The position numbers and the translations under genes were made by a program. The notes beneath the pieces are model-generated. The model had not been told where the DNA came from. It saw nothing but the letters and a program-made list of their open reading frames with translations, and ran no database searches. A stretch of DNA of 59,939 bases, taken from positions 5,610 to 65,548 of the forward strand of contig CAZVYU010000001.1 of assembly GCA_964631645.1 (NCBI GenBank), in the 5' to 3' direction. Below, piece after piece: positions 5,095 through 59,939 of the stretch. Each line of letters begins with the position of its first letter. The first letter of the stretch is position 1. Source of the stretch: an uncultured Actinomycetes bacterium. GTDB lineage: Bacteria > Actinomycetota > Actinomycetes > S36-B12 > GCA-2699445.

Positions 5095-5123
5095 CCTCGT
5101 CCGCGCCCGCGATAATCTGACTC

Positions 5124-5564
5124 ATGGCCGAACGCACCCAGGCGGAGCTCGAGATCGCGGCGACGCCGGCGCGGATCATGGCCACCATCGCCGATATCGA
5201 TCAGTATCCGACCTGGTGCCCGGGGGTCAGTTCGGCGCGCGTCCTGGCCGAGTTCCCCGACGGTCGCCCGCGCGAGGTCGAGATGATCTTCGACTCGGGC
5301 CCCATCCACGACACGCACGTCTACCGCTACGACCTGTGGGGTGACCGCGAGGTCCGCTGGCATCTCATCAAGGGGGAGACGGTGACCGGACTGTGGGGGG
5401 TGTACTCCTGTCACACGCTGGAGCCGCGCCGCACGTTGGTGGCCTACCGGCTGGCCATGGATCTGGCGGTGCCGATCATCGGAGCGCTCAAACGACGGGC
5501 CGAGAAGGTCATCGTGCGCACCGCACTGTTGGGCCTGCGCGATCGGATCGAGTCCGCTCCGTGA
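5124..5564 (+). CDS. SRPBCC family protein (polyketide cyclase/dehydrase-like)
   Basis: 146 aa. The N-terminal pattern ...EIAATPARIMATIADIDQYPTW... and its size are typical of this fold. Confidence 0.7.
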   Translation: MAERTQAELEIAATPARIMATIADIDQYPTWCPGVSSARVLAEFPDGRPREVEMIFDSGPIHDTHVYRYDLWGDREVRWHLIKGETVTGLWGVYSCHTLEPRRTLVAYRLAMDLAVPIIGALKRRAEKVIVRTALLGLRDRIESAP

Positions 5565-17904: not shown

Positions 17905-18006
17905 CGCCGTGATTGTGGCACGCCCCGGGAATCCTGCGGCAATCGTGTGTGATCCCGTGGCACCACCGCTGCGCGCGTGCCACGATGCCGCCAGAGAGGA
18001 GTCCTG

Positions 18007-18609
18007 ATGCCCGACGTCCCCCACGAATGGATCGACACCCTCCGCGGTGGCGGTGTTGTGCGGCTTGGCGCGTCCGATGTCGCCGACAGCGATCTCGAGT
18101 CGTGGGCCGCCACCACTGACCGCGCCGTGCTGACGCTGGATACGCAGGACTGCAGCACCGAATCAGAGTTGCTCGCGACGCTCGGTGCCGTGTTCGGACT
18201 CGACGAGGACACCGACGCGGAATGGGACACGATCGACGACTGCTTGGCCGACTATGACGTCGGACCGGCCGGCGGACTGGTGATCGTGTGGACCGGCTGG
18301 GACGGACTGGATGAGGACGCCGAGGACGCCATGCCCACAGCCGTCGATGCCTTCGCCACCGCGGCTCAGACATGGACCGATGAAGGACGACCGTGGGCGG
18401 TGCTGGTCGTCGGTGACGGACCGTCCTGGCAGTTGCCCTGGCTGGGGGCGGGGCCACCCCCATGGGAGGACGACGCCGCGGACCTCGACGAGCTTGGCGA
18501 TGCCGAGGACGATGACGACGAGGAGTGGGACACCGACGACGCCGAGATCTCCGACGAGTCCTACACCTTTGACGAGGAGCGGGCGGGCGACCCCGTCAGC
18601 CCGTGGTGA
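18007..18609 (+). CDS. Barstar-like (RNase-inhibitor fold) protein with a long acidic C-terminal tail
   Basis: ...SELLATLGAVFGLDEDTDAEWDTIDDCLADY...GLVIVWTGW... parallels barstar ...[29 protein letters not shown]...LVLEWRQF.... GAGAGGAG lies 5 nt upstream of ATG 18007. The tail is about 50% Asp/Glu. Confidence 0.55.
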   Translation: MPDVPHEWIDTLRGGGVVRLGASDVADSDLESWAATTDRAVLTLDTQDCSTESELLATLGAVFGLDEDTDAEWDTIDDCLADYDVGPAGGLVIVWTGWDGLDEDAEDAMPTAVDAFATAAQTWTDEGRPWAVLVVGDGPSWQLPWLGAGPPPWEDDAADLDELGDAEDDDDEEWDTDDAEISDESYTFDEERAGDPVSPW

Positions 18610-26788: not shown

Positions 26789-27913
26789 TCATTCAGTGGC
26801 GACGGCGCGGCCGCGCCACCGCAGGGTGCCGCGCCGCCGGCGGAATCCCGACACGGCGGTCAGCGACCACAGGGCCACCATGGCGAGCGGATGGGTGGGC
26901 GCCGACAGGACCGGCCCGCCCGTCGCCCGGGCGGCGATGACCCGGTTGACGACGGCCGCCGCATAACCGACCCTGGCCACCGACCGCAGCGTGGGATCGC
27001 GGCCGATCGCCGCGTAGGTCGGGGGGATCAGGTACACCGCGGCCAGGGCAGCGGTGACCGCGACCCCACGGGCGGGTCCGCCGAAAGCGCGCCACAGCGA
27101 TTTGGTGTAGCCCTCGACCACCGCGGCGTCGTCGGCGTACATGAGGCACCGAGCCACGGCAGACGCGTCGGCGACCATGCTGCGCCCTCCGCTGCGACGC
27201 ACCTGCCGGGCCAGGGCGATGTCCTCCAGTACCTCGCCGGCGACCGCAGCGTGGCCCCCGCACCGGACGTAGCCCGCCCGGGTCAGTACCAAGAACTGAC
27301 CGTTGGCCACCGCCAAAGAGGCGCGGTCGGTGGCCCGGTGGAGGGGAGTGGTCGTCAGCCACGACCACTGCTGCAACGGCTGGACCAGCCACGCCAAAGG
27401 GGTGGTGGCGAGTTGCCGAGGCCACGCGCTCAACAGATCGGCGCCGGACCGGCCCAGCTGGTCCACGGCCGTAGCGACGGCGTGGGGGTGAAGACGGACA
27501 TCGGCGTCGACGAACACCAGCACCGCGCCGGTCGCCGCGAGCGCCAACTGGTGACAGGCGTAGGGCTTGCCGAGCCAGCCGGCGGGGGGTTCCCCGGCTC
27601 CTGCCAGGAGGTGCACCCGCGGGTCGCTGCGGGCGTGTTCGGTGATCCGTGCGGCAGTGGCGTCACCGGACCGGTCGTCCAACACCAGGATCTCGAGGTC
27701 GGCCACGCCGCGTTGGGCACGCACCGACGCCAGGCAGTCATCGATCGTGGCGGCCTCGTCGCGCGCGGGGATCAGCACCGACACGCGCGATGAGGGGCCC
27801 GCCGGTGCTGATTCGGGGCGCAGGTGCGGCAGGTGCCGTCGGTTGGTGGCGGCATGGACGGCGCCGGCGATGGCGAGTGCCGAGGTCACCAGCACAGCGG
27901 TGCGCATGCTCAT
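26789..27913 (-). CDS. Family-2 glycosyltransferase, membrane-anchored (CruC/CrtX-like carotenoid glycosyltransferase candidate)
   Basis: VSVLIPARDEA, LDDRSGD and VDADV (DXD) motifs, with C-terminal TM segments. ATG 27913 overlaps the cruF-like stop (ATGA). Confidence 0.8.
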   Translation of the reverse strand: MSMRTAVLVTSALAIAGAVHAATNRRHLPHLRPESAPAGPSSRVSVLIPARDEAATIDDCLASVRAQRGVADLEILVLDDRSGDATAARITEHARSDPRVHLLAGAGEPPAGWLGKPYACHQLALAATGAVLVFVDADVRLHPHAVATAVDQLGRSGADLLSAWPRQLATTPLAWLVQPLQQWSWLTTTPLHRATDRASLAVANGQFLVLTRAGYVRCGGHAAVAGEVLEDIALARQVRRSGGRSMVADASAVARCLMYADDAAVVEGYTKSLWRAFGGPARGVAVTAALAAVYLIPPTYAAIGRDPTLRSVARVGYAAAVVNRVIAARATGGPVLSAPTHPLAMVALWSLTAVSGFRRRRGTLRWRGRAVATE

Positions 27914-28680
27914 GTCGCGGTTACTGCGTCGGATCGGGGTGACGCTCCGCGCAGCCCGCGCAGCGCCACGGCCATCGGGATCCCCATGCCGATGGCACCG
28001 ATCACGGCCACTGCGGGGCGGCCGAAGAACACCGCGTTCGCCAGGATGTTGGAGCAGTACACCCAGGCCAGCAGGACGACGGGAACCGACCAGAGGTCGG
28101 GTGGGCGGAGGGGTGGCCCGGCGAGAGCATCGGCGATGACCATCATGACCGTCGCCGCGATGATCCAGCCGATGAAGTTGGACAGTGGGATCCCGGGGAC
28201 CCCGGGCAGGGCGGGTTGCGGGTCGGCGAACGACCAGTGCCCTTCGGACACCATCTGGGGGTCCAGAAACAGATCCCAGCTGGCCAGCAGTCCGGCTGCC
28301 AGGGCGATCCGCCCGAGGCGGCTGCGGGTCGCCCGGGCGGCCACGACGTAGCAGGGGTAGCCCATCATCGCCCAAGCCAGTGGGATCACCGCCGGCACCG
28401 GTCCGAGTGCCGGCCCGAGTCGATCGGCATAGGAGTAGTCCCCGAACGGCACTCCGGTGGTGGTCCCCACCGCCTCGACGAGCCAGCCGAACCCGAGCGC
28501 GACGGCGAAGAAGGTGGCGGTCCAGGCGGGGGGTTGGGTCGCCAGCGAGTGGGTCAGCGAGGCGAGGAAGAACAACACGACCCCGGCGATGGTGAACCAG
28601 TCCCGGGTGGCACCGGACACCAGGACCCACAGGATCTGACTCCCGATCGTGCCGGCAGCCAGGAGTGGGGACAGCCGCAT
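27910..28680 (-). CDS. cruF: Carotenoid biosynthesis membrane protein of the CruF (carotenoid 1,2-hydratase) family
   Basis: Seven-TM-like protein with ...GVPFGDYSY... and ...DLFLDPQMV...W.W... patterns recalled from the Caroten_synth/CruF family. ATG 28680 overlaps the upstream TGA by 1 nt. Confidence 0.65.
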   Translation of the reverse strand: MRLSPLLAAGTIGSQILWVLVSGATRDWFTIAGVVLFFLASLTHSLATQPPAWTATFFAVALGFGWLVEAVGTTTGVPFGDYSYADRLGPALGPVPAVIPLAWAMMGYPCYVVAARATRSRLGRIALAAGLLASWDLFLDPQMVSEGHWSFADPQPALPGVPGIPLSNFIGWIIAATVMMVIADALAGPPLRPPDLWSVPVVLLAWVYCSNILANAVFFGRPAVAVIGAIGMGIPMAVALRGLRGASPRSDAVTAT

Positions 28681-29156
28681 CACGACTGAATCGTGGATGC
28701 TCCGCCGGAGCGGGGCAACTCCCCGACCTCGGCCGCGGTGCCCGCCGTGATGCGCAGTAGTTCGCTGTAGGTCGTGGGGAAGGAGTAGCCGTCGGCGCCG
28801 GCAGGCACCCAGATGCGGCGCCACCGGGCCAGGTTGATGCCGATGACGATGGTGACGGGGCGGGCGTGACCGACCGGGGCGATCGCGTCGGGGTCCTGTC
28901 CGGTCCACAGCGTGGCCACCGGCGGCGGGACCGGACGGACGGTCATGGCCCCCAGGACGCCGGCCAGGTCGACCGGATCGGCATGACCGTCGCAGACGAC
29001 CAGGACCGGTCGCCCGTCGGCCTCGAAGATCTCGGTGGTGACCAACGCTTCATCCGGCGCGGTCGGCGGCTCGGGAGAGGCTTGGGGGACACCCGCAGCG
29101 CCCAGTCCGGCCAGTTCGGCACCGACCCGGGTGACGGGTCCGGGGAGGTCGGCCAT
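28680..29156 (-). CDS. YbaK/EbsC-like (aminoacyl-tRNA trans-editing fold) protein, catalytic Lys not evident
   Basis: 158 aa. The layout ...GRPVLVVCDGHADPVDLAGVLG...TGQDPDAIAPVGH...VTIVIGINL...YSELLRIT... resembles YbaK domains. This is a weak, by-eye call. Confidence 0.45.
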   Translation of the reverse strand: MADLPGPVTRVGAELAGLGAAGVPQASPEPPTAPDEALVTTEIFEADGRPVLVVCDGHADPVDLAGVLGAMTVRPVPPPVATLWTGQDPDAIAPVGHARPVTIVIGINLARWRRIWVPAGADGYSFPTTYSELLRITAGTAAEVGELPRSGGASTIQS

Positions 29157-37882: not shown

Positions 37883-38854
37883 ATGACCGAGTCCGCGCAT
37901 CACGACCCCGTGTTCCTGGACCGCATCTGCGAACTCCTGGCCCCTGCTCTGGCCGACGGTGGCGTCATGATCGACGCCACCGTGGGACTGGCCGGCCACA
38001 CGACAGCCGTGCTCGAGCGGTTCCCGGGTGCTCGGGTCGTGGGGATCGACCGTGACCCCGAAGCGCTGCGACTCGCCCGTCAGCGGACCAGTGCCCATCC
38101 CGGGCGCTTCGTCGGCCATGCAGCGGTGTTCGACGACATCGAGGGTGCCCTGGCAGCGGTCGAAGCGGACACGGCCGACGCGGTCCTGTTCGACCTCGGC
38201 GTGTCCAGCCTGCAGTTGGACAGTGATCGGCGGGGGTTCGCTTACAGTCGGGACACCGTCCTGGACATGAGGATGGACGCCACGGCAGGGGTCACAGCCG
38301 CGGACGTGGTGAACGAGTACAGCACCGAGGAGTTGACGCGGGTGTTCCGGGAGTACGGCGAAGAGCGGTTCGCGCACCGTATCGCCCGTGCCGTCGTCGC
38401 TGCCCGAGGTCGGTCCCCCCTGCGTACGACCACTCAACTGGCGGAGTTGTGCGACAACGCGGTGCCCTTGGCCGGTAGGCGCAAGGGCCACCCGGCCAAA
38501 CGGGTGTTCCAGGCGTTGCGGATCGAGGTCAACGACGAACTCGGGGCCCTGCGGGTCGGCTTGGACCGGGCGGTGCGGGCCACCAAGGTCGATGGCCGGG
38601 TGGCCGTGTTGTCCTACCACTCGCTCGAGGACCGGATCGTCAAGCGTGCCTTCGCCGCGGGGATCCAGCCACCGGTCCCGCCGGGACTGCCCATCATCCC
38701 GGACACCGCTCGCCCTTTCCTGCGGCCGCTGACCCGAGGCGCAGAGAAGCCGACCGCCGCCGAGATCGCCGCCAATCCTCGGGCGGCGTCTGCCCGACTG
38801 CGGGCCGTGGAGAAGATCCAGCCGGTCATCCCCGGCTGGGAGGTGGCCGCATGA
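37883..38854 (+). CDS. rsmH: 16S rRNA (cytosine1402-N4)-methyltransferase
   Basis: HDPVFLDRICELL...IDATVGLAGHT...DLGVSSLQLD...SYHSLEDRIVK motifs. CAGGAGGTGG RBS before ATG 37883. Confidence 0.9.
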   Translation: MTESAHHDPVFLDRICELLAPALADGGVMIDATVGLAGHTTAVLERFPGARVVGIDRDPEALRLARQRTSAHPGRFVGHAAVFDDIEGALAAVEADTADAVLFDLGVSSLQLDSDRRGFAYSRDTVLDMRMDATAGVTAADVVNEYSTEELTRVFREYGEERFAHRIARAVVAARGRSPLRTTTQLAELCDNAVPLAGRRKGHPAKRVFQALRIEVNDELGALRVGLDRAVRATKVDGRVAVLSYHSLEDRIVKRAFAAGIQPPVPPGLPIIPDTARPFLRPLTRGAEKPTAAEIAANPRAASARLRAVEKIQPVIPGWEVAA

Positions 38855-39489
38855 CCACCGCAACTCCAGCCCGGCCCCACGCCGCTACCAGGATTCGGGT
38901 CCCGCGGGTCGCCCGATCCCGTCCGCGCCCGCGCGTGAGTTCGCTGCCGTTCTTGGCGCTCATCGCCGGATTGCTCGGCGCTGCGCTCATCGCGCTGCTG
39001 CTGATCAACAACAGCCTGGCGGCGGGGTCATTCGAGCAGGCGCGCCTGAAGGGCGACCAGATCCTGTTGGGGGAACAGGAGCAGGCGCTGAACCAAGAGG
39101 TCGAACGACTGTCCAGCCCGACCCGGTTGCGCGAGGCCGCGCGCCAGGCGGGCTTGGTCGCGGCCGCCACCACCGCGTACATCGACCTCACCACGGGCGA
39201 GATCCTCGGTGTGCCCAAGCCGGCGACCGCCGGCGGTGCGGCGCCTGGCTTGACCCCGGCGGAACCGCTGACGCCGGGAGCAGCGGCGCCCTCCCCGGGC
39301 GCAGCCCCCACCACCGCTCCCACCGCCCCCACAGCTCCCACCGCTCGCACGGCTCCCACCGCTCCGGCTCCGGCCGCTCCCGGTGCTGCGGCCACCACCC
39401 CGGCGCCCGACGGGTCCGACGGGGCGGCCGTCAGCCCGGGCGGGGTGACCGCCTACGACCGGGCGGTCGTCAGCGGAGGTGGCCGATGA
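38851..39489 (+). CDS. ftsL: FtsL-like cell-division protein (TM + coiled coil) with a Pro/Ala/Thr-rich tail
   Basis: Position between rsmH and ftsI. The ATGA start overlaps the rsmH stop. TM segment LPFLALIAGLLGAALIALLLI is followed by a heptad-like segment. Confidence 0.65.
   Translation: MTTATPARPHAATRIRVPRVARSRPRPRVSSLPFLALIAGLLGAALIALLLINNSLAAGSFEQARLKGDQILLGEQEQALNQEVERLSSPTRLREAARQAGLVAAATTAYIDLTTGEILGVPKPATAGGAAPGLTPAEPLTPGAAAPSPGAAPTTAPTAPTAPTARTAPTAPAPAAPGAAATTPAPDGSDGAAVSPGGVTAYDRAVVSGGGR
39313..39366 (+). repeat. Degenerate 9-nt (ACC GCT CCC; Thr-Ala-Pro) coding tandem repeat inside the ftsL-like gene
   Basis: It encodes TAPTAPTAPTARTAPTAP. Read directly from the sequence. Confidence 0.6.
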
Positions 39490-47912: not shown

Positions 47913-48988
47913 TGGGTCTGCGCGTGGCCCTGGCCGCCGGCGGGACCGGCGGCCACATCGAACCGGCCCTAAACCTGGCCGACGAACTGCTGCGTCGTGA
48001 TCCGACCACCGACATCATGGTGATCGGTACCGCCAAGGGCCTCGAGACGGATCTGGTGCCTGCGCGCGGCTACGACCTCGAACTCATCGATCCCGTCCCG
48101 CTGCCGCGGCGGCCCGGACGGGAGTTGGTGACGTTGCCCGGGCGCCTGCGCACCTCGGTGCGGCAGGCACGCGACACGATGGCGGCCCGGGGCAGCCAGG
48201 TGGTCGTCGGGTTCGGCGGGTACGTGTCGCTACCGGCCTATCTGGCGGCGCGGCGCCGGCTGCCGGCGGTCATCCACGAGGCCAACGCCAAGCCGGGGCT
48301 CGCCAACCGGGTCGGGGCGCGGCTGTCGCCCTGGGTCGCCGAGAACTATGCGGGGTCGTTGCCGCACGCCCGTCGGCTCGGGTGCCCGCTGCGTCATGCG
48401 ATCGAGACGTTGGACCGCGCGGCGCAACGGGCAGCGGCCCGGGAACACTTCGGACTGTCGTTGACCGCCCCGGTCCTGTTGGTCTTCGGCGGTTCCCAGG
48501 GGGCTGCCTCCGTCAACGCCGCATTGGCCGGCGCCCTGGACCGGTTGCTCGCCACCGGGATCCAGGTCGTGCACGCGATCGGTCCGCGGCAAGCGGAGCA
48601 GATGAGGCCCCGCGCCGGGTACCACCCGCTGCCGTTCATCGACCGGATGGATCTGGCCTACGCGGCGGCCGATCTGGCGGTGTGCCGTGCCGGTGCCATG
48701 ACCTGCGCCGAGGTGGCCGCCGTCGGATTGCCGTGCCTCTACGTGCCCTATCCGATCGGCAACGGGGAACAGCGGTTCAACGCGGAACCGGTGGTGGCGG
48801 CAGGCGGTGGCATCATGGTGGTCGATGCCGATCTGACCGCCGGGCGACTGGCCGCCGAGGTCATCCCGCTGATCACCGACGACCGTCGGCTGGCCGACAT
48901 GGGCGCTCGCGCTGCGGCCTACGGCATCCGCGATGGGGCCGCCCGGTTGGCCGACATGGTGACCCGCGCTGCGGAGGAAGGCCGATGA
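47912..48988 (+). CDS. murG: Undecaprenyldiphospho-muramoylpentapeptide beta-N-acetylglucosaminyltransferase
   Basis: AAGGTGGHIEP motif. ATG 47912 overlaps the ftsW TGA by 1 nt. Confidence 0.9.
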   Translation: MGLRVALAAGGTGGHIEPALNLADELLRRDPTTDIMVIGTAKGLETDLVPARGYDLELIDPVPLPRRPGRELVTLPGRLRTSVRQARDTMAARGSQVVVGFGGYVSLPAYLAARRRLPAVIHEANAKPGLANRVGARLSPWVAENYAGSLPHARRLGCPLRHAIETLDRAAQRAAAREHFGLSLTAPVLLVFGGSQGAASVNAALAGALDRLLATGIQVVHAIGPRQAEQMRPRAGYHPLPFIDRMDLAYAAADLAVCRAGAMTCAEVAAVGLPCLYVPYPIGNGEQRFNAEPVVAAGGGIMVVDADLTAGRLAAEVIPLITDDRRLADMGARAAAYGIRDGAARLADMVTRAAEEGR

Positions 48989-50394
48989 CCGAACTGACGC
49001 TGCCGCAGTTGCGCCGGGTCCATCTCGTCGGCATGGGTGGGGCGGGGATGAGCGGCCTGGCCCGGCTGATGATCGACCGCGGCGTCGCGGTCTCGGGCAG
49101 CGACATGCGCGATTCCGCCCGGCTCGAGACCCTGCGCCGGCAGGGCGCCGACGTCTACATCGGGCACGATGCCGCTCACGTCGCCGCCGACGTCGATGTG
49201 GTCATCGACACCCCGATCATCCCTGCGGACAACCCCGAAGTGGCGGCCGCCCACGACCGGGGGATCCCGGTCCTGGCGCGCTCCGAGGCGCTCGCCCTGG
49301 TCATGGCCGACCGCACGGTCATCGGGGTCGGTGGGACGCACGGGAAGACGACCACGACGTCAATGATCACGGTCGCGCTGCAGCGGTGTGGTGTCGATCC
49401 GTCGTTCGCCATCGGCAGCGAGGTCAACGACTTGGGCAGCAACGCCCACACCGGACAGGGCGATTTTTTTGTGGTCGAGGCGGACGAGTCCGATGGGGCG
49501 TTCCTGCACATGCACCCGGCGGTCGTCGTCGTCACCAACGTCGAACCGGACCACCTGAACCACTGGGGCACCTTCGAGGCGCTGGAAGCCGCCTTCGACG
49601 AGTTCGTCGATCTGGTGAACCCCAACGACGGCTTCGCCGTCATCTGCGCCGACCAGGTGGGCAGCCGCGCCGTCATCGAGCGCGCTCGCGCCCGGGGGAC
49701 TCACGTGGTCACCTACGGCACCAGCGCCGACAGTGACTACCGCCTGGTGATCCTGGGCAGCGAACACGCCGGATACCGCTTCGATGTGATCCATCGGGGC
49801 GTCCGCCTGGGCGACATCGTCCTGCAGGTGCCCGGACGCCATAACGCACTGAACGCCACGGCGGCCCTGGCAGCGTGTCACGGGCTCGGCTTCAGCACCG
49901 CGGAGATCCGCGCCGGTCTCGAAGCTTTCAGCGGGACCCGGCGGCGGTTCGAGTTCCGCGGCGAGGCCGGGGGAGTGCGGGTCTACGACGACTACGCCCA
50001 CCACCCGACCGAACTCGAGGCCACCCTGACCGCCGCCCGCGAGTTCCTGGGCGAAGGGCCGCGCTTGGTCGTCGCCTTCCAAGCTCACCACTACTACCGC
50101 ACCGCCTTGTTCAGCCGGGAGTTCGGCGCGGCGCTCGGCCTGGCCGATGATGTCGTCGTCCTGGAGGTCTTCGCCCCGGGCGAGGAACCCATCCCCGGTG
50201 CCAGCGGGCAGGCGATGGCCGCCAACGTCCCCCTTCCGCCCGCTCATGTGGTCTTCGAACCTTCGTGGTCGAAGGTGGCGGGTCATCTCGCGGCCCGTGC
50301 CCGTCCCGGAGATATGGTGATGACGCTGGGCGCAGGGGACATCTCACTCCTGGGTCCCGAGGTGCTGGCACTGCTGCGGGAGGGAGACCGATGA
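48985..50394 (+). CDS. murC: UDP-N-acetylmuramate--L-alanine ligase
   Basis: GMGGAGMSGLA and GVGGTHGKTTTTS motifs. ATGA overlap with murG. Confidence 0.9.
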   Translation: MTELTLPQLRRVHLVGMGGAGMSGLARLMIDRGVAVSGSDMRDSARLETLRRQGADVYIGHDAAHVAADVDVVIDTPIIPADNPEVAAAHDRGIPVLARSEALALVMADRTVIGVGGTHGKTTTTSMITVALQRCGVDPSFAIGSEVNDLGSNAHTGQGDFFVVEADESDGAFLHMHPAVVVVTNVEPDHLNHWGTFEALEAAFDEFVDLVNPNDGFAVICADQVGSRAVIERARARGTHVVTYGTSADSDYRLVILGSEHAGYRFDVIHRGVRLGDIVLQVPGRHNALNATAALAACHGLGFSTAEIRAGLEAFSGTRRRFEFRGEAGGVRVYDDYAHHPTELEATLTAAREFLGEGPRLVVAFQAHHYYRTALFSREFGAALGLADDVVVLEVFAPGEEPIPGASGQAMAANVPLPPAHVVFEPSWSKVAGHLAARARPGDMVMTLGAGDISLLGPEVLALLREGDR

Positions 50395-51176
50395 CCACGC
50401 TGTCCGCCCCGGCCCAGTCGACGACGGAACCGGCGGGCCCGGCCGATCCCGGACCCCGACGGCGGCGCCCCCGCCTGAAGGTGCGACTGGTGATCTTCGC
50501 CGTTCTGGCCGTCGTGATCGCCGGCGTGTTCGCCTGGCTGCTGTCGTGGCAGTCCCCGGTCCCGGTCCGGACCGTCACGGTGACCGGTGCCGCCCCGGAC
50601 AAGCAGGCCGAGGTCAAGGCCGCTGCCGCCATCGTCGAGGGCACGCCGATCCGCGACCTGGCGGTCGATCAGATCGTCAGCCGAGTGGGTTCCGTTCCGG
50701 GCATCGAAGGGGTCGAGGTCGTCCTGCAGCGTCCGTGGACCATCGATCTCGCGGTCGAGCAACGCGTCCCCTTCGCGGTCACCGGATCCGCTGATCAGTG
50801 GACGGTCGTCGACCGGCGCGGCCAACCCATCACCCAGTCCGCTGCCCGGCCGGCGGCGCTCCCGCAGGTGACGACCGCCGGCGCCGCCGGCCCGGCCGGA
50901 GCCCTGGCCGCGTTGGCCGCACTTCCGCCGGAGCTCAGGGCCAAGGTTCGGACGGCGGCGGTGGATGCACCGGGCACCATCACCCTCACCCTGAACTCCG
51001 GGGTGGTGGTGGCGTGGGGTCTGCCTGGTCAGGAGGCGGCCAAGGCGAAGGCCGTGGTGGCGGTGTCCTCCTACAAGCCGACGCGTATCGATGTGTCCGT
51101 GCCGCAGCGGCCAGCGCTGAGTGGACCGCTGAAGCTGCCCCAGCGCAACCAACAGCAGGAAGAGCCGGTTCAGTAG
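50391..51176 (+). CDS. ftsQ: Cell-division protein FtsQ (POTRA domain)
   Basis: ATGA overlap with murC. Basic N-terminus, one TM segment (LVIFAVLAVVIAGVFAWLL), then a POTRA-like ...VRTVTVTG... domain. Confidence 0.8.
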   Translation: MTTLSAPAQSTTEPAGPADPGPRRRRPRLKVRLVIFAVLAVVIAGVFAWLLSWQSPVPVRTVTVTGAAPDKQAEVKAAAAIVEGTPIRDLAVDQIVSRVGSVPGIEGVEVVLQRPWTIDLAVEQRVPFAVTGSADQWTVVDRRGQPITQSAARPAALPQVTTAGAAGPAGALAALAALPPELRAKVRTAAVDAPGTITLTLNSGVVVAWGLPGQEAAKAKAVVAVSSYKPTRIDVSVPQRPALSGPLKLPQRNQQQEEPVQ

Positions 51177-51238
51177 ATCACCGCGCGTCCCGCGATGGTC
51201 ACCGATAGCGTTCCCTCGTCGCCTAACGAGGAGTGGAC

Positions 51239-51781
51239 ATGACTCGCCGAAACTTGACCGTCGCAGCCGGATTGTCCGGAGTAGCCCTGGTGGCCGTGGG
51301 ATGCAGCAGCAGTTCCACCCCGGCGGACAGCGTGACCGTGACCGCCACTCCCACCGAAGCCACGGCCGCGGCGCCCACTCCCACCGCCACTAAGACCAAC
51401 TCAGGCTCTGGTGGGGCGACCCTTCCGAAGCCACCCGCGGGATCCACCAAGGTGGGCGGCTCGAGCAACGGCGCCGAGCAGTACGCCCGGTACAAGAACT
51501 CGCAGAAGAGTCCGCAGAAGATCGTCAACAGCTACAAGAAGAAGGCCCAGCAGACCGGCTACACGATCAAGAACTCCGGTGGCAGCGGCGGTGGCTGGGG
51601 CGGCTACGGCGGTTCGAACTACGGTCTGACCGCTGAGAAATCAGGCTCCTACCTGGACGTCCAGGCCGGTGGCGAGAACAGCGGCCCGACCTACTTCGAA
51701 GTGTGTGTCGGACCTGACAACGGGGCTCGGGAGCACTGCGAGAACTCCAGCCAAGAGGATTCCCGCTCCAACGCGAGTTGA
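51239..51781 (+). CDS. Putative lipoprotein, unknown family (Thr/Pro linker, Lys- and Gly-rich C-terminal domain)
   Basis: Signal peptide with a lipobox-like LVAVGC. GAGGAG lies 6 nt upstream of ATG 51239. Its composition is visibly Lys-richer and less GC-rich than its neighbours. Confidence 0.6.
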   Translation: MTRRNLTVAAGLSGVALVAVGCSSSSTPADSVTVTATPTEATAAAPTPTATKTNSGSGGATLPKPPAGSTKVGGSSNGAEQYARYKNSQKSPQKIVNSYKKKAQQTGYTIKNSGGSGGGWGGYGGSNYGLTAEKSGSYLDVQAGGENSGPTYFEVCVGPDNGAREHCENSSQEDSRSNAS

Positions 51782-52662
51782 TGCGGCTGCTCACCCGTCG
51801 GGAACATCGGTTCCCGGCGATGGGCACCCGCTGCCATGTGGTCGTGGTGGGCGGCGACTCGCAGCTGCCCGCCGGCGCCGAGGCGCGGATCCGGGAACTT
51901 CAGGGTCGCTGGACGCGCTTCGAACCCGACAGCGAGATCAGCCGACTGAACGCGCTGGGTTCGGCCACGTTGAGTCCGGACAGTTGGCGGCTGCTCGCCG
52001 CCGGGGTCGTGGGCCGGGCGCTGACCGACGGCCGGTTCGACCCGTTCCTGGAGCGGCAGATCGTCGCCGCGGGCTATGACCGCGATTTCGCGGAGCTCAC
52101 CGACACGCAGCCGACCGGAACTGCGCGCGCGGCGGTGGCCCGACCCATCCAGTCATGGGATCGACGACGCCGTTGGGTCCGATTGGCGCCCGGGGCCGCA
52201 CTCGACTCGGGCGGGTTGGGCAAGGGACTGGCCGCTGATCTCGTCAGCGCAGAACTCATGGCGGCCGGCGCGGTGGCGTGTCTGGTGAATCTGGGGGGCG
52301 ACCTGCGGGTACGGGGCGACAAAGGAACGCCGTGGGAGATCGGGATCGACCGCGAGTCCGACGGCGAGTCGCTGTCGGTGCGGCTCACCGCCGGCGGACT
52401 GGCGACCAGCAGCGTCAGCAGACGGCGCTGGGGGACTGCCGACGGCGGGCACGCGCACCATCTGCTCGACCCCCGGACCGGTCGGCCACTGCGGGGGCGC
52501 TGGGTGGGCGCCACCGCCATCGCACCCCAGGCCTGGCTGGCGGAGGTGCTCAGCAAGGTCCTGCTCCAGGTCGACCAGCGGCGAGGCGCACGACTGCTGG
52601 CCCGGCATCGCGGCGGCGGTGTGATCCAGGGTCCGGAAGGTCAGGTGGTCACCCTCGGCTGA
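51781..52662 (+). CDS. apbE: FAD:protein FMN transferase (ApbE family), no signal peptide evident
   Basis: The ApbE patterns FPAMGTRCHVVV, LDSGGLGKGLAAD and NLGGDL are present. The start overlaps the lipoprotein TGA by 1 nt (TGATG). Confidence 0.8.
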   Translation: MRLLTRREHRFPAMGTRCHVVVVGGDSQLPAGAEARIRELQGRWTRFEPDSEISRLNALGSATLSPDSWRLLAAGVVGRALTDGRFDPFLERQIVAAGYDRDFAELTDTQPTGTARAAVARPIQSWDRRRRWVRLAPGAALDSGGLGKGLAADLVSAELMAAGAVACLVNLGGDLRVRGDKGTPWEIGIDRESDGESLSVRLTAGGLATSSVSRRRWGTADGGHAHHLLDPRTGRPLRGRWVGATAIAPQAWLAEVLSKVLLQVDQRRGARLLARHRGGGVIQGPEGQVVTLG

Positions 52663-52878
52663 CCCTGGTCCAGCCATCGATCTTGAGTTGAGGTCCAGAC
52701 TTTCGTAGGGAATCGGTCACGAATCTGCTTGCTGGCCGGATCACCCGCTCATAGCCTTCACCTGATCGAACACCGGGGAACTGATCCGGGCCGAGAACCC
52801 TCGAGCCCAGGTCGAGGTGATCGAGTGGGTGGGAAAACACTAGGACCGCCGTCGAACGACGGTGTGGGAGGGAATCTC

Positions 52879-53999
52879 GTGGCTGCTCCGCAGAATTACT
52901 TGGCCGTCATCAAGGTCGTCGGCATCGGCGGCGGGGGTGTCAACGCCGTCAACCGCATGATCGAGGTCGGCCTCAAGGGCGTCGAGTTCATCGCGATCAA
53001 CACCGACGCACAGGCCCTGCTCATGAGCGACGCCGACGTCAAGCTCGACATCGGCCGGGACCTCACGCGCGGACTGGGCGCGGGCGCCAACCCCGACGTG
53101 GGCCGTCAGGCCGCCGAAGACCACGGCGACGAGATCGAAGAGGTCCTCAAGGGTGCCGACATGGTGTTCGTGACCGCTGGCGAAGGGGGCGGCACCGGGA
53201 CCGGCGGCGCACCCGTCGTGGCTCGCATCGCCCGCAGCCTCGGCGCCCTGACCATCGGCGTCGTCACCCGCCCGTTCGGATTCGAGGGACGCCGGCGCGG
53301 CACCCAGGCCGAGGACGGCATCGAGTCGCTGCGCGGCGAGGTCGACACGCTCATCGTGATCCCCAACGACCGACTCCTGTCGCTCACGGATCGGCAGATC
53401 AGCGTCATCGACGCCTTCAAGCAGGCGGACCACGTCCTGCTGCAGGGTGTCTCGGGCATCACCCGGGCCTGATCAACCTCGACTTCGCCGACGTGAAGAG
53501 CGTCATGCAGGGGGCCGGCAGCGCTCTCATGGGGATCGGCTCCTCCCGCGGTGGCGACGACCGTGCGATCACAGCGGCCGAGGGCGCCATCAACTCGCCG
53601 CTGCTCGAGGCGAGCATCGACGGCGCCCACGGTGTGCTGATGTCGATCGCAGGTGGCAGTGATCTGGGGCTCTTCGAGATCAACGAAGCCGCTCGGCTCG
53701 TATCGGAGGCCGCCCACCCCGACGCCAACATCATCTTCGGCACGGTCATCGACGACACCCTCGGCGACGAGGTGCGCGTCACCGTCATCGCGGCCGGCTT
53801 CGACGGCGGACTGCCGACGACCCGCGAGACCGCCGAGGTGCGCGTCCCCGAGAGCGAGACCGTCTCGGTGCGCCCCGCGGCGCGACCGCAGGGTGCCGTG
53901 GCGCAGCCGGTCGGCGGGGGTACTCCCGTGGAGCCGCAGCGCACGGTGTTCGACGACTCCGACGATGACGGCATCGACATCCCCGACTTCCTGAAGTGA
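52879..53999 (+). pseudogene. ftsZ: ftsZ interrupted by a frame change at ~53463 (N-terminal part 52879-53472 in frame 1, C-terminal part continues in frame 3 to 53999)
   Basis: Frame 1 gives the [10 protein letters not shown] tubulin signature and ends ...[11 protein letters not shown]. Frame 3 reads [27 protein letters not shown]...DIPDFLK. Base 53463 is shared by the last good codon (ACC) and the first codon of the continuation (CCG). The conserved DLITT between GIT and PGL is missing. GGGAGGG RBS before GTG 52879. Confidence 0.85.
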
Positions 54000-54742
54000 C
54001 CGCCGCGCCGCGCGGGCAGTCACCCGCTCGGTCGGATCAGTGGCATCGGGTGGTCTTCACCGGTCGGTCCGGGGGAGTGAGCACCGGGGCGTTCGCTTCG
54101 TTGAACCTGGGCGACCACGTCGGTGACGACCCCGGGGCGGTCACCGCCAACCGCGCCACGCTGGCCGCCTTCGCGGGACTGCCAACGGATCGACTCGCCG
54201 TCATGAAGGCCGCCCACGGTCGGGATTCGGCCGTGGCCGATCGGCCGGGGACCTACGAGGACGTCGACATCCTGGTCACCCGCGACCCGGAGCTGGCGGT
54301 GGTCGCCCTGGCGGCCGACTGTGTGCCGATGGCGCTGCTGGATCCCGGAGCGGGCGTGGCTGCGGCCGTGCACTCCGGGTGGCGCGGTGTTGCTGCGGAT
54401 GCCGCAGGAGCCGCGGTCGCGGCCATGGTCGCCCAAGGGGCACAGCCCGAGCGCATCAGCGCCCGCCTGGGGGCCGCCATCTGTCCCGCTTGTTATGAGG
54501 TCTCCGAAGACGTGCGCCACGACGTCGCCGCCTCCGCCCCGGACGCGTTCGCCGTCACCCGGTCCGGAAGGCCCGCGGTGGCCCTGCACCCAGCGGTACG
54601 GCAGCAACTGCGCCGGGCGGGCGTCACCGAGATCACCGCCGACCCCACGTGCACCTTCGAGTCGCAGGCGTTCTTCTCGCACCGGCGCGACGGGGTCACC
54701 GGTCGCCACGGCGTCGTGGTGCGCCTTCCGGAGTCAGCGTGA
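53996..54742 (+). CDS. pgeF: Peptidoglycan editing factor PgeF (YfiH/laccase-domain protein)
   Basis: ...ADCVP...HSGWRG...CPACYEV... motifs. GTGA overlap with the ftsZ stop. Confidence 0.85.
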   Translation: MTAAPRGQSPARSDQWHRVVFTGRSGGVSTGAFASLNLGDHVGDDPGAVTANRATLAAFAGLPTDRLAVMKAAHGRDSAVADRPGTYEDVDILVTRDPELAVVALAADCVPMALLDPGAGVAAAVHSGWRGVAADAAGAAVAAMVAQGAQPERISARLGAAICPACYEVSEDVRHDVAASAPDAFAVTRSGRPAVALHPAVRQQLRRAGVTEITADPTCTFESQAFFSHRRDGVTGRHGVVVRLPESA

Positions 54743-55440
54743 GCGATCGCACCGAACAGTTGCGGCACGGCCTGGCGGTGGTGCGTACTCGCATCGCCGC
54801 GGCCGCCGATGTGGTCGGTCGGGATCCTGATTCCGTGACACTGATCGTGGTGTCCAAGACCTGGCCGGCCGACGACGTGCGTCGCCTGGCGGACCTCGGG
54901 GTCACCGATGTCGCGGAGAACCGGGACCAGGAGGCGGTCCCCAAGGTGCAGGCGTGCGCGGACCTGGACCTGACCTGGCACTTCGTGGGGCAGCTCCAGC
55001 GCAACAAGGCCGCCTCGGTGGCGCGGTACGCCGACGTGGTGCAGTCGGTCGACCGGGAGGCTCTGGTGGCCGCCCTGGACCGGGGGGCCGCACGAGCGGG
55101 CCGGCGCCTGGGCGCATTGGTCCAGGTGGGCCTGGATACCGGCGCAGATGCCCACCGGGGCGGCTGCGCTCCCGTCGATCTGCCCGCCGTGGCGGGGGCG
55201 ATCGACGACGCCGAACATCTGGAGTTGCTGGGCCTGATGGCGGTGGCGCCGCTGGGGGCGGACCCGGCACCCGCCTTCGCCCGGCTGGCTGGCCTGCGCG
55301 ACGACTTGGTGGCCCGGTTCCCGGGCGCGGACTGGATGTCCGCGGGGATGAGTGGCGATCTGGAACAAGCGGTCGCAGCCGGCGCGACACACGTGCGTGT
55401 CGGCAGCGCAGTGCTCGGGGGGCGCCCGGATGTCAGGTAA
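54739..55440 (+). CDS. yggS: YggS-family pyridoxal-phosphate homeostasis protein (YlmE)
   Basis: ...VTLIVVSKTWP... (PLP Lys), ...WHFVGQLQRNK..., ...SAGMSGDLE...VRVGSA.... GTGA overlap with pgeF. Confidence 0.85.
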   Translation: MSDRTEQLRHGLAVVRTRIAAAADVVGRDPDSVTLIVVSKTWPADDVRRLADLGVTDVAENRDQEAVPKVQACADLDLTWHFVGQLQRNKAASVARYADVVQSVDREALVAALDRGAARAGRRLGALVQVGLDTGADAHRGGCAPVDLPAVAGAIDDAEHLELLGLMAVAPLGADPAPAFARLAGLRDDLVARFPGADWMSAGMSGDLEQAVAAGATHVRVGSAVLGGRPDVR

Positions 55441-55638
55441 CGTCAGTCCACGAGCCACCACCTCGACCGGCGGCGCTCCTGGGGGCCCCTCCGGGACACC
55501 GCGTCAGACCTCGGGTCTCCGGACGACCGGCAACGGTCCCCGGCCCCGGGAACAACACCGAACACAACACAGGATCAGAGACGCAGGATCACACTGGTGG
55601 TGGTTCAAGCGCCTCACTTCCCCGTCAGAGGAGCGGAC

Positions 55639-56160
55639 ATGGCAACAGCGATGAAGCGACTGGGTGTGTACCTCGGTCTGGTCGAGGACGACCCCAACTA
55701 CCAGTACGACTATGGGCAGCCCGGCACCACCGGCACGACCGGCTCCACCGGTACCGCGCGGAGCCCGGAAGCCGGGGCGACCAGCGCCACTGCTTCGGTC
55801 TCCACGCTCCCGCGTCGGGACGCCGACACCGCCGCCCGGCCGGTCGTCAGTGCGACGGCCCCGGCCGCGGGGACCGTCGATCCCTACGCCATCCACACCA
55901 TCCATCCGCGCTCGTACAACGACGCCCGCCGGATCGGTGAGCAGTACCGGGCCGGCTCGCCGGTCATCATGAACCTGAGCGAGATGAACGACTCCGACGC
56001 CAAGCGGATCGTGGATTTTGCGGCCGGCCTGGTCTTCGCCATGCACGGCAGCATCGAGCGGGTGACCCAGAAGGTGTTCCTGCTGTCCCCAGCCAACGTC
56101 GACGTCCGCGACGCCCCCGCGGTGCAGCAGGCGCGCGACGGATTCTTCAACCAGAGCTGA
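55639..56160 (+). CDS. sepF: Cell-division protein SepF
   Basis: N-terminal amphipathic MKRLGVYLGLVEDD and a C-terminal core ...PRSYNDARRIGEQYRAGSPVIMNL...RIVDFAAGLVFAMHGSIERV.... AGAGGAG RBS before ATG 55639. Confidence 0.85.
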   Translation: MATAMKRLGVYLGLVEDDPNYQYDYGQPGTTGTTGSTGTARSPEAGATSATASVSTLPRRDADTAARPVVSATAPAAGTVDPYAIHTIHPRSYNDARRIGEQYRAGSPVIMNLSEMNDSDAKRIVDFAAGLVFAMHGSIERVTQKVFLLSPANVDVRDAPAVQQARDGFFNQS

Positions 56161-56166
56161 TCTCTG

Positions 56167-56466
56167 GTGGGCGCGTTCCTGGGTTTCCTGGCCACGCTCC
56201 TGTGGGTGTACTGGCTGATCCTGATCGGTCGGCTCATCCTGGACTGGGTGCAGGTGTTCTCCCGGGACTGGCAGCCCAAGGGGCCGCTGTTGGTGATCGC
56301 CGAGGCGATCTACACGGTCACCGACCCACCGCTGCGCCTGCTGCGCCGCTTCATCCCGCCGTTGCGGCTGGGTCAGGTGGCCCTCGACCTGTCGTTCCTG
56401 GTCCTGATCCTGGGGATCGGCATCGCCATCTCGGTGCTCTCCGGAATGGCCGCCTCCGCGGGTTAG
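56167..56466 (+). CDS. yggT: YggT-family membrane protein (YlmG)
   Basis: 99-aa two-TM protein with ...YTVTDPPLRLLRRFIPP..., typical of YggT. Confidence 0.8.
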   Translation: MGAFLGFLATLLWVYWLILIGRLILDWVQVFSRDWQPKGPLLVIAEAIYTVTDPPLRLLRRFIPPLRLGQVALDLSFLVLILGIGIAISVLSGMAASAG

Positions 56467-59400
56467 ATCCGCTCCACCCAGATGTGGAACTGATCGTCCT
56501 TGCCCGGGAAGCGTTGTCCTCGGCCTGGTCCCGGCGCCACCTCGACAGCCAGCACCTCGGCGGCGATCAGGTCGGCGTGTTCCACGATCGCGTCGGCGGT
56601 CTCGAGGTCGTCGGACTGCCACGACAGGATCACGCGATCACTGACTGAATAACCGGACGCCTTGCGGGCCTCCTGCACGACGCGGATCACCTGGCGCGCC
56701 AATCCGAGCCGTACCAGCGACGGTGTCAGGTGCAGGTCGAGAGCCACGGTGGCGCCCTCCGCCGAGGCCACCGCCCACCCTTCGCGCGGGGTCTCGGTGA
56801 CCACCACGTCATCGGCGGTGATGGTCACCGCCCCCAGTGTGTCGACATGAACCGAGGCGCTCCCATCCGGGCCGCGCAGCTGGGCGACCACCCCCACGGG
56901 GTCCAACGCCGTGATGGCGGCCGCGACCTGCGGCGTCTGTTTGCCGTGGGTTCGCCCGAGGGAACGGAAGTTCGGTTTGACCGATACCTCGATCAGGTCA
57001 CCTGCCGCGTCGGTGAGCGATTCCAACGACTGCACGTTCAGCTCGTCGGCCACCTGCCGGCGCAGGTCGTCGGGCAGTTGGTCCCACCCAGGTGCCGACA
57101 CCGCGGCGGCGGTCAATGGCTGCCGGGTGCCGACGCCGGCCTCACCCCGGGCCGTGCGCCCCAGATCGACCAGTCGACGCACCAGTGCCATGTGTTCCTC
57201 AAGAGCCTCATCGCGCACGACCGGGTCCGGTTCGGGCCAGTCGTTCAGGTGCACCGACGGCCGGCCCTGCGCTGCGAACAGGTCCTGCCACACCCGTTCG
57301 GTGATGAAGGGGGTGAACGGGGCCATCGCCACGGTCAGCAGGCGCAGGCATTCGTGCAAGGTGCTGAGCGCCGCCGGGTCGCCGTCCCAGAACCGGCGCC
57401 GCGACCGGCGGACGTACCAGTTGGACAGGTCGTCGATGTAGCGCGCCAGTTCCCGACCGGCGGCCTGGGTGTCGAACCGCTCGAGCAGTTCGTCGACCTG
57501 CTGGGTCATGCCGTGTGCCCGCGACAGTGCCCACCGGTCCAGCACATGATCCGACGGCGTCAGCGTGGCCGGATCCCACTGCGACGCCTGGGCGTAGAGC
57601 GCCTGGAAAGACACGGTGCTCCAGTACGTCGACAGCGTCTTGCGCCACACCTCTTCGATGGCCTGATGCCCCACACGCCGGGCCTGCCACGGTGAACCGC
57701 TGGCCAACATGAACCAGCGGACCGAGTCCGCCCCGTGGGTGTCCATCAACTCGAACGGGTCGAGGACGTTGCCCAGGTGTTTGCTCATCTTGCGGCCGTC
57801 GGCGTCCAGGATATGCCCGAGGCACAGCACGTTGCGATAACTCGACTCGTCGAACACGAGCGTCCCGATCGCCATCAGCGTGTAGAACCAGCCGCGGGTC
57901 TGGTCGATCGCCTCGCAGATGAAGTCGGCGGGGTAACTGGCGGAGAACTCCTCGCTGTTGCGGTGCGGGTACCCGAACTGGGCGAACGGCATGGCACCGG
58001 AGTCGTACCAGCAGTCGATGACCTCGGGGACCCGTGTGGCCGTCAGCCCGCAGGAGGGGCACGGCAACGTGACATCGTCCACGAAGGGGCGATGGGGATC
58101 GAGTTCGGACACGTCCCGGCCGGCGTACTCGGACAGCTCCGCCAACGATCCGATCGCCGTGAGGTGCCCGTCGGAGCAGCGCCACAAGGGCAGGGGGGTG
58201 CCCCAGTAGCGGTCACGGCTGAGCGCCCAGTCGATGTTGTTGCGCAGCCAGTTGCCGTAGCGACCCCACTGGATCGTCGGCGGGAACCACGAGGTCGCCT
58301 CGTTCTGGTCGAGCAGTTCCTGCTGCCGAGCGGTCGTACGGATGAACCACGACGGCTGCGCGTAGTAGATCAGGGGGGTGTGGCAGCGCCAGCAATGCGG
58401 ATAGGAGTGTTCGTAGGGCACATGTCGCACCAGCAGTCCGCGCGAGGCCAGGTCCGCCACCAGCACCTCGTCGGCCTTTTTGAAGAACAGTCCGCCCACC
58501 AGCGGCACCTCAGGTTCGAATGTCCCGTCCGGACGCACCGGGTTGATCATCGGCAGGTCGTAGCCGCGTGCTGCGTTCAGGTCGTCCTGGCCGAACGCGG
58601 GAGCGATGTGGACGAGCCCGGACCCGTCGTCGGTGGTCACGTAGTCGCCCCGGATGACGTAGTGGGCGTCCGGCACCTCGACCAGATCGAACGGCGCCGC
58701 GTACGGCAGCCCCTCCAGCACCGATCCGGACAGCGTCTCCAGCACCTCTGGTTCTTCGCCCGGTAGCGCCGTGTCGACCAGGCCTGCGGCGACCACGAAC
58801 AGGTCGCCGGTACCGGTGCGCACCACCTGGTAGTCGGCCGCCGGCTGAACCGCGACCGCGACGTTGGACACCAGGGTCCACGGCGTGGTCGTCCAGACCA
58901 GCAGCGCCACCCCGGGATACCGATCCGCGAGATCGCCCCCGGTCACCGGGAACCGGACGAAGACGGACGGATCGACGACGTCCTCGTAACCCTGAGCCAA
59001 CTCATGATCGGACAACCCCGTCCCGCACCGGGGACAGTACGGGCTCACCCGGTGATCCGACACCAGCAGCCCGGCTTCGAAGATCTGCTTGAGCGACCAC
59101 CACACCGATTCGACGTAGTCGCTGTCCATGGTCCAGTAGGCGGCATCCATGTCGACCCAGTAGCCCATCCGTTCGGTGAGCCGCGCGAACTCGTCGACGT
59201 GCCGCACCACCGACTCCCGGCACCGGGAGTTGAACTCGGCGATTCCGTACGCCTCGATGTCCTGCTTGCCGTTGAACCCGAGTTCCTTCTCGACGGCCAA
59301 CTCGACCGGCAGCCCGTGGCAATCCCAACCCGCCTGGCGCGGGACGTAGTACCCCTTCATCGTTCGATGCCGGGGGAACACGTCCTTGAAAGCGCGCGCT

Positions 59401-59582
59401 TCGATGTGATGGGTGCCGGGGCTGCCGTTGGCCGTGGGGGGTCCCTCGTAGAACACCCATCGGGGAGCGTCGGCACGCTGCGCGAGGGTGGCGTCGAAGA
59501 TCTCGTGCTCGCGCCAGAAGTCGATGATGCCGGCTTCCATCTCGGCCGGGTTGTCGATCCGAGCGGGGACCTCGCGGTACAT
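56463..59582 (-). CDS. ileS: Isoleucine--tRNA ligase
   Basis: A HIGH-type motif (PGTHH in PTANGSPGTHHIEA), the KMSKHLG (KMSKS) motif, and CP1 editing-domain length are all present. 1039 aa. The ORF overlaps the yggT stop convergently by 4 nt. Confidence 0.95.
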   Translation of the reverse strand: MYREVPARIDNPAEMEAGIIDFWREHEIFDATLAQRADAPRWVFYEGPPTANGSPGTHHIEARAFKDVFPRHRTMKGYYVPRQAGWDCHGLPVELAVEKELGFNGKQDIEAYGIAEFNSRCRESVVRHVDEFARLTERMGYWVDMDAAYWTMDSDYVESVWWSLKQIFEAGLLVSDHRVSPYCPRCGTGLSDHELAQGYEDVVDPSVFVRFPVTGGDLADRYPGVALLVWTTTPWTLVSNVAVAVQPAADYQVVRTGTGDLFVVAAGLVDTALPGEEPEVLETLSGSVLEGLPYAAPFDLVEVPDAHYVIRGDYVTTDDGSGLVHIAPAFGQDDLNAARGYDLPMINPVRPDGTFEPEVPLVGGLFFKKADEVLVADLASRGLLVRHVPYEHSYPHCWRCHTPLIYYAQPSWFIRTTARQQELLDQNEATSWFPPTIQWGRYGNWLRNNIDWALSRDRYWGTPLPLWRCSDGHLTAIGSLAELSEYAGRDVSELDPHRPFVDDVTLPCPSCGLTATRVPEVIDCWYDSGAMPFAQFGYPHRNSEEFSASYPADFICEAIDQTRGWFYTLMAIGTLVFDESSYRNVLCLGHILDADGRKMSKHLGNVLDPFELMDTHGADSVRWFMLASGSPWQARRVGHQAIEEVWRKTLSTYWSTVSFQALYAQASQWDPATLTPSDHVLDRWALSRAHGMTQQVDELLERFDTQAAGRELARYIDDLSNWYVRRSRRRFWDGDPAALSTLHECLRLLTVAMAPFTPFITERVWQDLFAAQGRPSVHLNDWPEPDPVVRDEALEEHMALVRRLVDLGRTARGEAGVGTRQPLTAAAVSAPGWDQLPDDLRRQVADELNVQSLESLTDAAGDLIEVSVKPNFRSLGRTHGKQTPQVAAAITALDPVGVVAQLRGPDGSASVHVDTLGAVTITADDVVVTETPREGWAVASAEGATVALDLHLTPSLVRLGLARQVIRVVQEARKASGYSVSDRVILSWQSDDLETADAIVEHADLIAAEVLAVEVAPGPGRGQRFPGKDDQFHIWVERI

Positions 59583-59585
59583 GGC

Positions 59586-59785
59586 ACTCCTCGTGACAGG
59601 TCACGAAGGGACGACGGCCCCGGTCCGGGACTGCCGCGGTACCACCCTCCTTGCCGTCCGGGGACGACCGCTCGGTTAGCCCGCTGCCGGTTCTACTCCG
59701 CGCTGAACGCGGTTCCTCCGGCGACTCGGGAGTGATGTCCGGCCGGGCTGACCACCGGACTCGCACCAGTCTCCGGCTCGCTTCG
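59586..59785 (-). promoter_or_regulatory. T-box riboswitch leader of ileS (Ile specifier AUC)
   Basis: On the minus strand, the T-box sequence AAGGAGGGUGGUACCGCGG lies at 59652-59634. Stem I candidate: GCGAGCCGGAG...GUCCGG...CCGGAC-AUC-A-CUCCCGAGUCGC, with AUC at 59736-59734 followed by a purine. The SD GAGGAG (59592-59587) lies just downstream of the discriminator. Confidence 0.75.
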
Positions 59786-59872
59786 GTCAGGTCCCGCGGT
59801 CGGCGCGTCTCCGTCAGCGTCGTTGCGGCCTGCCCAGACTACCCGCACCACGCGTTGGCTGCCGCCCCGCTC

Positions 59873-59939
59873 CGCGGGGTGAGTGCCGCCGCAGCGCCCA
59901 CCTTCCGCGGGGTGAGTAGCCGCCGCAGCGCCCACCTTC
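59873..59939. repeat. Two tandem copies (33 and 34 nt) of CGCGGGGTGAGT(A)GCCGCCGCAGCGCCCACCTTC, running into the window edge
   Basis: Copy 1 spans 59873-59905 and copy 2 spans 59906-59939. They differ only by one inserted A. The array may continue beyond the window. Confidence 0.6.

Follow-up and report, generated by a model that had tools for sequence, protein, structure and literature searches.

A 16-nt gap private to one actinobacterial metagenome record splits ftsZ and is probably an assembly or consensus artefact

Does a broken ftsZ within an otherwise intact dcw cluster mark an actinobacterium that divides without canonical FtsZ, or a fault in one deposited sequence? The first-pass annotation of this DNA framed the locus as a choice between an artefact and a genuine loss or split of the gene. 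We examined the lesion in the window, that is, the whole 59,939-nt stretch of DNA that was analysed and whose positions are used throughout, and compared it with related sequences in public collections. The locus comprises the following features.

52879 to 53472, plus strand: N-terminal ftsZ fragment of 197 aa with a GTG start, ending in GVSGITRA and a stop; GTPase domain and most of helix H7
53462 to 53463, plus strand: lesion junction, where 16 nt that read CGACCTCATCACCACG in conspecifics are absent
53463 to 53999, plus strand: remainder of ftsZ in frame 3, with the T7 loop, the C-terminal domain, the linker and the C-terminal peptide DIPDFLK
53465 to 53468, plus strand: two substitutions private to the window, G against C at 53465 and C against T at 53468, 3 and 6 nt from the junction
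53470 to 53472, plus strand: premature TGA in frame 1, made by the frameshift and seen by direct reading
53493 to 53507, plus strand: in-frame restarts, GTG at 53493 (168 aa) and ATG at 53505 (164 aa)

Direct reading and Pfam searches on both ORFs bear out the initial description of a frame 1 that stops at TGA 53470-53472 and a frame 3 that carries on from 53463. The product of 52879-53469 matches the Tubulin/FtsZ GTPase domain (PF00091, E 1.6e-46, profile positions 2-188 of 190), and the frame-3 product matches FtsZ_C over its full length (PF12327, E 4e-34, profile positions 1-95 of 95). The frame-3 part corresponds to residues 197-378 of FtsZ by tblastn, ends in DIPDFLK as in all relatives, and has its stop codon at 53997-53999. 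Together the two halves sum to 373 aa, five fewer than the 378 aa of the nearest database proteins, and protein alignment identifies DLITT as exactly the residues absent from the window. Since the N-terminal half, DLITT and the C-terminal half joined in this order equal a database FtsZ (P0240, 378 aa) residue for residue, the split pattern is not a product of chance.

At the nucleotide level, 16 nt are absent after base 53462 relative to every relative, namely the codons for DLITT plus one base. The window reads ATCACCCGGGCCTGATC at the lesion where nine conspecific contigs read ATCACCGACCTCATCACCACGCCCGGTCTGATC, with GGGCATCAC to the left of the junction and CCGGGCCTGATC to its right. In a DNA alignment with one of these contigs (L081, 99.0% identical), this single 16-nt gap is accompanied by no other indel across 3.9 kb. 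DNA and protein alignments therefore agree with the earlier estimate that DLITT and about 16 nt are missing. The further proposal of one C too few in a C-run is too simple: compared with the conspecific haplotype, the window carries a 16-nt gap plus the substitutions at 53465 and 53468. We conclude that ftsZ in the window is broken by a 16-nt gap, a result that we regard as confirmed.

Alignment to solved FtsZ structures, in E. coli numbering, assigns the lost residues to the last turn of helix H7 and the first residue of the T7 loop. The original placement of the lesion within core helix H7 was correct as far as the last turn goes, but the damage also reaches the T7 loop. In E. coli FtsZ this loop spans residues 202-209, and its GxxNxD motif enters the nucleotide pocket of the neighbouring subunit and triggers GTP hydrolysis (PMC8456036). 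In the window, the frame 1 stop at 53470-53472 comes ahead of the T7 loop, and the frameshift leaves the N-terminal product without any of the loop and without the C-terminal domain; no continuous polypeptide joins the two FtsZ domains through H7 and the T7 loop (GxxNxD). The intact conspecific protein P0240, to which the window sequence is identical outside the lesion and which is encoded in the same dcw cluster, aligns end-to-end with FtsZ chains in the PDB (4E6E; 1RLU from Mycobacterium tuberculosis) at E values of 2e-165 to 6e-158, including the segment GITDLITTPGLIN(L/V)DFADV. The gene is an ordinary actinobacterial ftsZ, but unlike in P0240, 4E6E and 1RLU its reading frame breaks, as it stands in the window, where H7 meets T7, and so it lacks the unbroken H7-T7 link that defines an FtsZ.

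The dcw genes of the window run in the order mraZ, rsmH, ftsI, murE, murF, mraY, murD, ftsW, murG, murC and ftsQ, followed by two extra genes and then by ftsZ, pgeF, yggS, sepF and yggT. As had been claimed, the cluster is otherwise intact: sepF, ftsQ and ftsW, like every mur gene, are complete and conserved, and the intact conspecific ftsZ is found in the same cluster. The two extra genes (51233-52662) separate ftsQ from ftsZ. The first is a 182-aa ORF, rich in Thr, Ala and Gly and with no Pfam match, that possibly encodes a secreted protein or lipoprotein; the second encodes an ApbE-family flavin transferase. This two-gene insertion is common to all conspecific contigs and to a relative with ~78% nucleotide identity (L082). 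Elsewhere in the window, carotenoid-type genes lie on the minus strand at 16960-18099 and 26789-28686 (phytoene/squalene synthase, a Caroten_synth family protein and an adjoining family-2 glycosyltransferase), and a gene at 5552-6727, whose product is an ArsA/GET3-like anion-transporting ATPase ending in an HSP20-like domain, adjoins one for a polyketide-cyclase/SRPBCC protein (5121-5564).

If the gap were a property of the lineage, it should recur in related genomes. Nine conspecific metagenome contigs from nine samples or assemblies (L081, L204, L211, L212, L213, L214, L215, L216 and L217) span the site at 98.6-99.4% nucleotide identity, and all nine encode an intact 378-aa FtsZ with the haplotype ACC GAC CTC ATC ACC ACG CCC GGT. 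Scanning public metagenome contigs for the same flanks, we found no match with a spacer of 0-12 nt and at least 120 contigs with a longer spacer. Among the related contigs fetched, with spacers of 0-40 nt allowed between the conserved flanks, the spacer was exactly 22 nt and coded TDLIT(T/S)PG in 130 of 130 matches; the window spacer is 6 nt. Because a scan of the GTDB representative genomes found no close relative (best hits at 78% identity along the entire length and at 87% within the core), they are no guide to the ancestral state, which was shown instead by the protein database and by exact-protein look-ups. The truncated 197-aa product (P0121) occurs once in a collection of 15 billion proteins, from one NCBI contig that also yields P0243, a 164-aa C-terminal fragment starting at ATG 53505. 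The lesion is present in this deposited public record, presumably the source of the window, and nowhere else; it is private to the record rather than common to related genomes, and a lineage-level loss of ftsZ is refuted. Of the two options posed at the outset, the pairing itself was apt, but the intact gene in the 9 conspecific and 130 of 130 wider contigs speaks against the genuine-loss branch, and a functional split or recoding finds no support. A separate oddity was seen at the same spot in a 1,023-nt ENA contig outside the window, whose FtsZ prediction (P0122) looks chimeric: it reads ...GITDLITTPGLIN and then jumps back to about residue 41, probably by a mis-join via a short shared ATCAAC-type repeat.

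The gap also leaves no trace of decay in the rest of the gene. Compared codon by codon, the repaired window ftsZ differs from those of L081, L203 and L204 by 3, 5 and 7 synonymous codons, respectively, and the sole non-synonymous difference in this three-gene comparison stems from an allele that is private to L081 rather than to the window. Outside the gap there is no amino-acid difference from P0240. Against P0240 and the three conspecific genes we found neither extra non-synonymous changes nor further lesions that would point to relaxed constraint. With no decay of ftsZ, the lesion is therefore evolutionarily instantaneous. Long-standing pseudogenisation is excluded, and the intact ftsZ is kept under purifying selection in the species population.

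We next consider the quality of the contig itself. Conspecific contigs cover 34154-59937 of the window (25.8 kb), and in this interval the ftsZ gap is the only frame-breaking indel. The other indels, an 18-nt one at about 39324 and another of 9 or 18 nt in sepF, are in frame, and two 1-nt differences from L211 and L212, at 59903 and 59934, fall at the divergent window end. The indel at about 39324 consists of 18 extra nt in the window, within a small gene upstream of ftsI (ORF 38851-39489); that in sepF lies in the low-complexity linker at about 55727-55740, where contigs that are ~99% identical show in-frame length differences of 9 or 18 nt. A crude codon-usage gene finder, combined with Pfam searches on suspicious abutting ORFs, found no second split gene in the 60-kb window, and every suspicious pair proved to have complete, distinct domains. 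A generally indel-ridden assembly is ruled out by this single frame-breaking difference and the absence of another split gene. Apart from indels, the SNPs between conspecific contigs L203-L217 are tightly clustered over 48954-59937 of the window (for example at 52155-52200, 55206-55368, 56646-56652 and 58410-58485), which suggests a mosaic, recombining population.

Several clues to the origin of the gap lie at the junction. Where 4 or more conspecific contigs cover the window (13,451 positions), it has 7 private SNPs, and 2 of the 7 are those at 53465 and 53468, a few nucleotides from the junction and private with respect to all 9 covering contigs. They turn the conspecific CCC GGT into CCG GGC, an allele common in other actinobacterial species. 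The flanking haplotype of the window, with the 16 nt present, occurs in 13 non-conspecific contigs; one of these 13 (L085), although only 83% identical across ftsZ, agrees exactly with the window for 42 nt on the left side of the junction and 47 nt on its right. Among the loci fetched, 243 of the 1090 ftsZ 31-mers of the window are common to other species. Because 12 conspecific contigs from other assemblies break inside the gene (L205-L210, L223 and L229-L233), ftsZ is a recurrent graph breakpoint for this species. Six of them end at 52914-53081 (one at 53081 and, at 52914-52937, five Logan contigs that come from different runs), and six start at 53564-53780 (one at 53564 and five Logan contigs at 53742-53780).

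Inspection by hand, with ACC CCG GGC assumed as the ancestral allele, gives a junction microhomology of just 2 nt (CC). Slippage between direct repeats was rejected as the source of the junction: the ATCACC repeats are spaced by 12 nt and the CCTGATCA repeats by 18 nt, so that slippage between them would yield in-frame deletions of 12 or 18 nt and not what is observed. Hairpin-mediated deletion was likewise rejected, the intact DNA having only a weak 5-bp inverted repeat, CGGGC/GCCCG. The intact DNA folds no better than shuffles (z = +1.35), and the window holds no other close match to act as an ectopic template for the junction.

Taken together, the gap is probably an assembly or consensus artefact of one deposited metagenome contig and not a property of the organism, and we infer that its cause is technical and that no real DNA molecule was mutated. 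Co-occurring actinobacteria have ftsZ cores with almost the same nucleotide sequence, a situation in which assembly graphs would tangle. The contig path through such a tangle may have incorporated a short segment with the allele that is common in other species, and a mis-join along the same path may have dropped the 16 nt; the true gene of the organism would then be the intact 378-aa ftsZ of all conspecific contigs. We favour this reading because the lesion is private, is compound and sits in a recurrent contig-break zone common to other species. It accounts for the uniqueness of the lesion, for the adjacent alleles of other species and for a position where other assemblies break. It is established that when a gene is essential and present in one copy, a null allele of it cannot be what most cells of a free-living bacterium with a cell wall carry. 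Published work has shown assembly errors to be behind many of the frameshift pseudogenes that public assemblies contain (Cooley and Wright 2024, PMC11017572). Our case resembles those spurious pseudogenes in that one assembly carries a frameshift in a conserved gene that is intact in near-identical genomes. It differs in being a single 16-nt gap in a clean contig, with a technical cause that we infer, whereas theirs were many small indels in poor assemblies.

Some observations nevertheless speak against an artefact. Each k-mer of a contig from a pure de Bruijn assembly comes from at least 1 read, and some molecule or library product probably carried the junction. The rest of the contig is very clean: about 26 kb are free of stray 1-nt indels, and this speaks against a consensus that is sloppy throughout. 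As spontaneous mutations go, the loss of 16 nt at a 2-nt microhomology is perfectly ordinary, and the two neighbouring synonymous third-position substitutions could be natural strain polymorphism.

These points lead to the main rival explanation, one that we hold to be unlikely, in which the gap is a genuine, private and very recent null mutation in a sampled molecule or sub-clone, caught by a low-coverage assembly as a dead-end, non-functional allele. The 16-bp deletion could have arisen, for example, by error-prone end joining or by replication slippage with the 2-nt microhomology. Such an event would be compatible with a junction that exists in the deposited public record (P0121 and P0243) and not in the window alone, with the accuracy of the surrounding contig, and with two adjacent substitutions that are synonymous in the intact frame, as natural alleles would be. 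The names of the conspecific contigs, moreover, give ~2.5-9x coverage, at which single molecules can decide the consensus. It must be set against the absence of the deletion from all 9 conspecific and all 130 wider contigs, the lack of any sign of relaxed selection in ftsZ, and a prior for a fresh null allele in an essential gene that is far below that for a technical error in a graph tangle. Finally, the gap is clustered with two private SNPs that match other species, and this clustering points to a chimeric origin.

It is much harder to credit that FtsZ is truly split or missing in a living cell of this kind, whether with its N- and C-domains made as two polypeptides, through a recoded frame, with a second ftsZ elsewhere or in an ftsZ-dispensable lifestyle like that of Streptomyces; we consider this highly improbable. 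All that can be said for it is the presence of the lesion in the record and the scope of the search for a second ftsZ, which found none and covers the window alone. Programmed frameshifting and recoding are familiar from dnaX (-1) and prfB (+1), and the window resembles such sites in that the ftsZ halves lie in different frames and a shift of -1 is required between them. The resemblance ends there. Direct reading of ATC ACC CGG GCC TGA reveals no X XXY YYZ slippery heptamer, and the downstream RNA is less stable than its shuffles (53455-53560 folds at -37.9 kcal/mol, whereas the shuffles average -43.4; z = +1.54), so that neither a slippery sequence nor a stimulatory structure is in place. Orthologues do not conserve the shift either, all 9 conspecific and 130 of 130 wider contigs being in frame, and unlike at a recoding site five conserved codons are also gone. 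Programmed frameshifting was rejected, as was transcriptional slippage, for which the site offers no homopolymer.

Translational reinitiation fares no better. From 52821 up to 53493, frame 3 is free of start codons, and both GTG 53493 and ATG 53505 lie downstream of the T7 loop. It had been noted correctly that a restart at GTG 53493 falls past this loop, but it is not the only restart, since ATG 53505 exists and is used in the public call P0243. Neither has a convincing Shine-Dalgarno sequence, the nearest candidate being a purine-rich GAAGAG ahead of the ATG. Reinitiation was rejected. Either restart would lose the T7 loop, and even a frame-restored product would still be without five invariant residues at the H7/T7 boundary. 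It is very unlikely that the broken ftsZ still works.

Bacteria without FtsZ, or able to dispense with it, include the Chlamydiae, some Planctomycetes and Mollicutes, L-forms and Streptomyces ftsZ nulls. The window is like them in that no functional FtsZ is expected from its sequence. The difference is that theirs is a loss or tolerance at the level of the lineage, whereas here the species population keeps an intact ftsZ, with sepF and ftsQ intact as well. The frameshift is common to no conspecific or wider relative, and ftsW and the mur genes stand complete in a window that holds no second ftsZ. That the deletion is fixed in a viable strain of an uncultured Nanopelagicales-like actinobacterium, which would divide without canonical FtsZ by means of a second ftsZ, another divisome or the separate fragments, is scarcely believable.

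Were the lesion genuine, the essentiality of FtsZ would come into question, since an actinobacterium that lives freely and has a cell wall would be carrying a null ftsZ in an otherwise intact dcw cluster. With an artefact as the preferred reading, the practical use of the finding is as a curation flag: the ftsZ of this record should be treated as an error or a pseudogene call pending read-level checks. More broadly, the case illustrates the highly conserved ftsZ core as a recurrent weak spot in metagenome assemblies.
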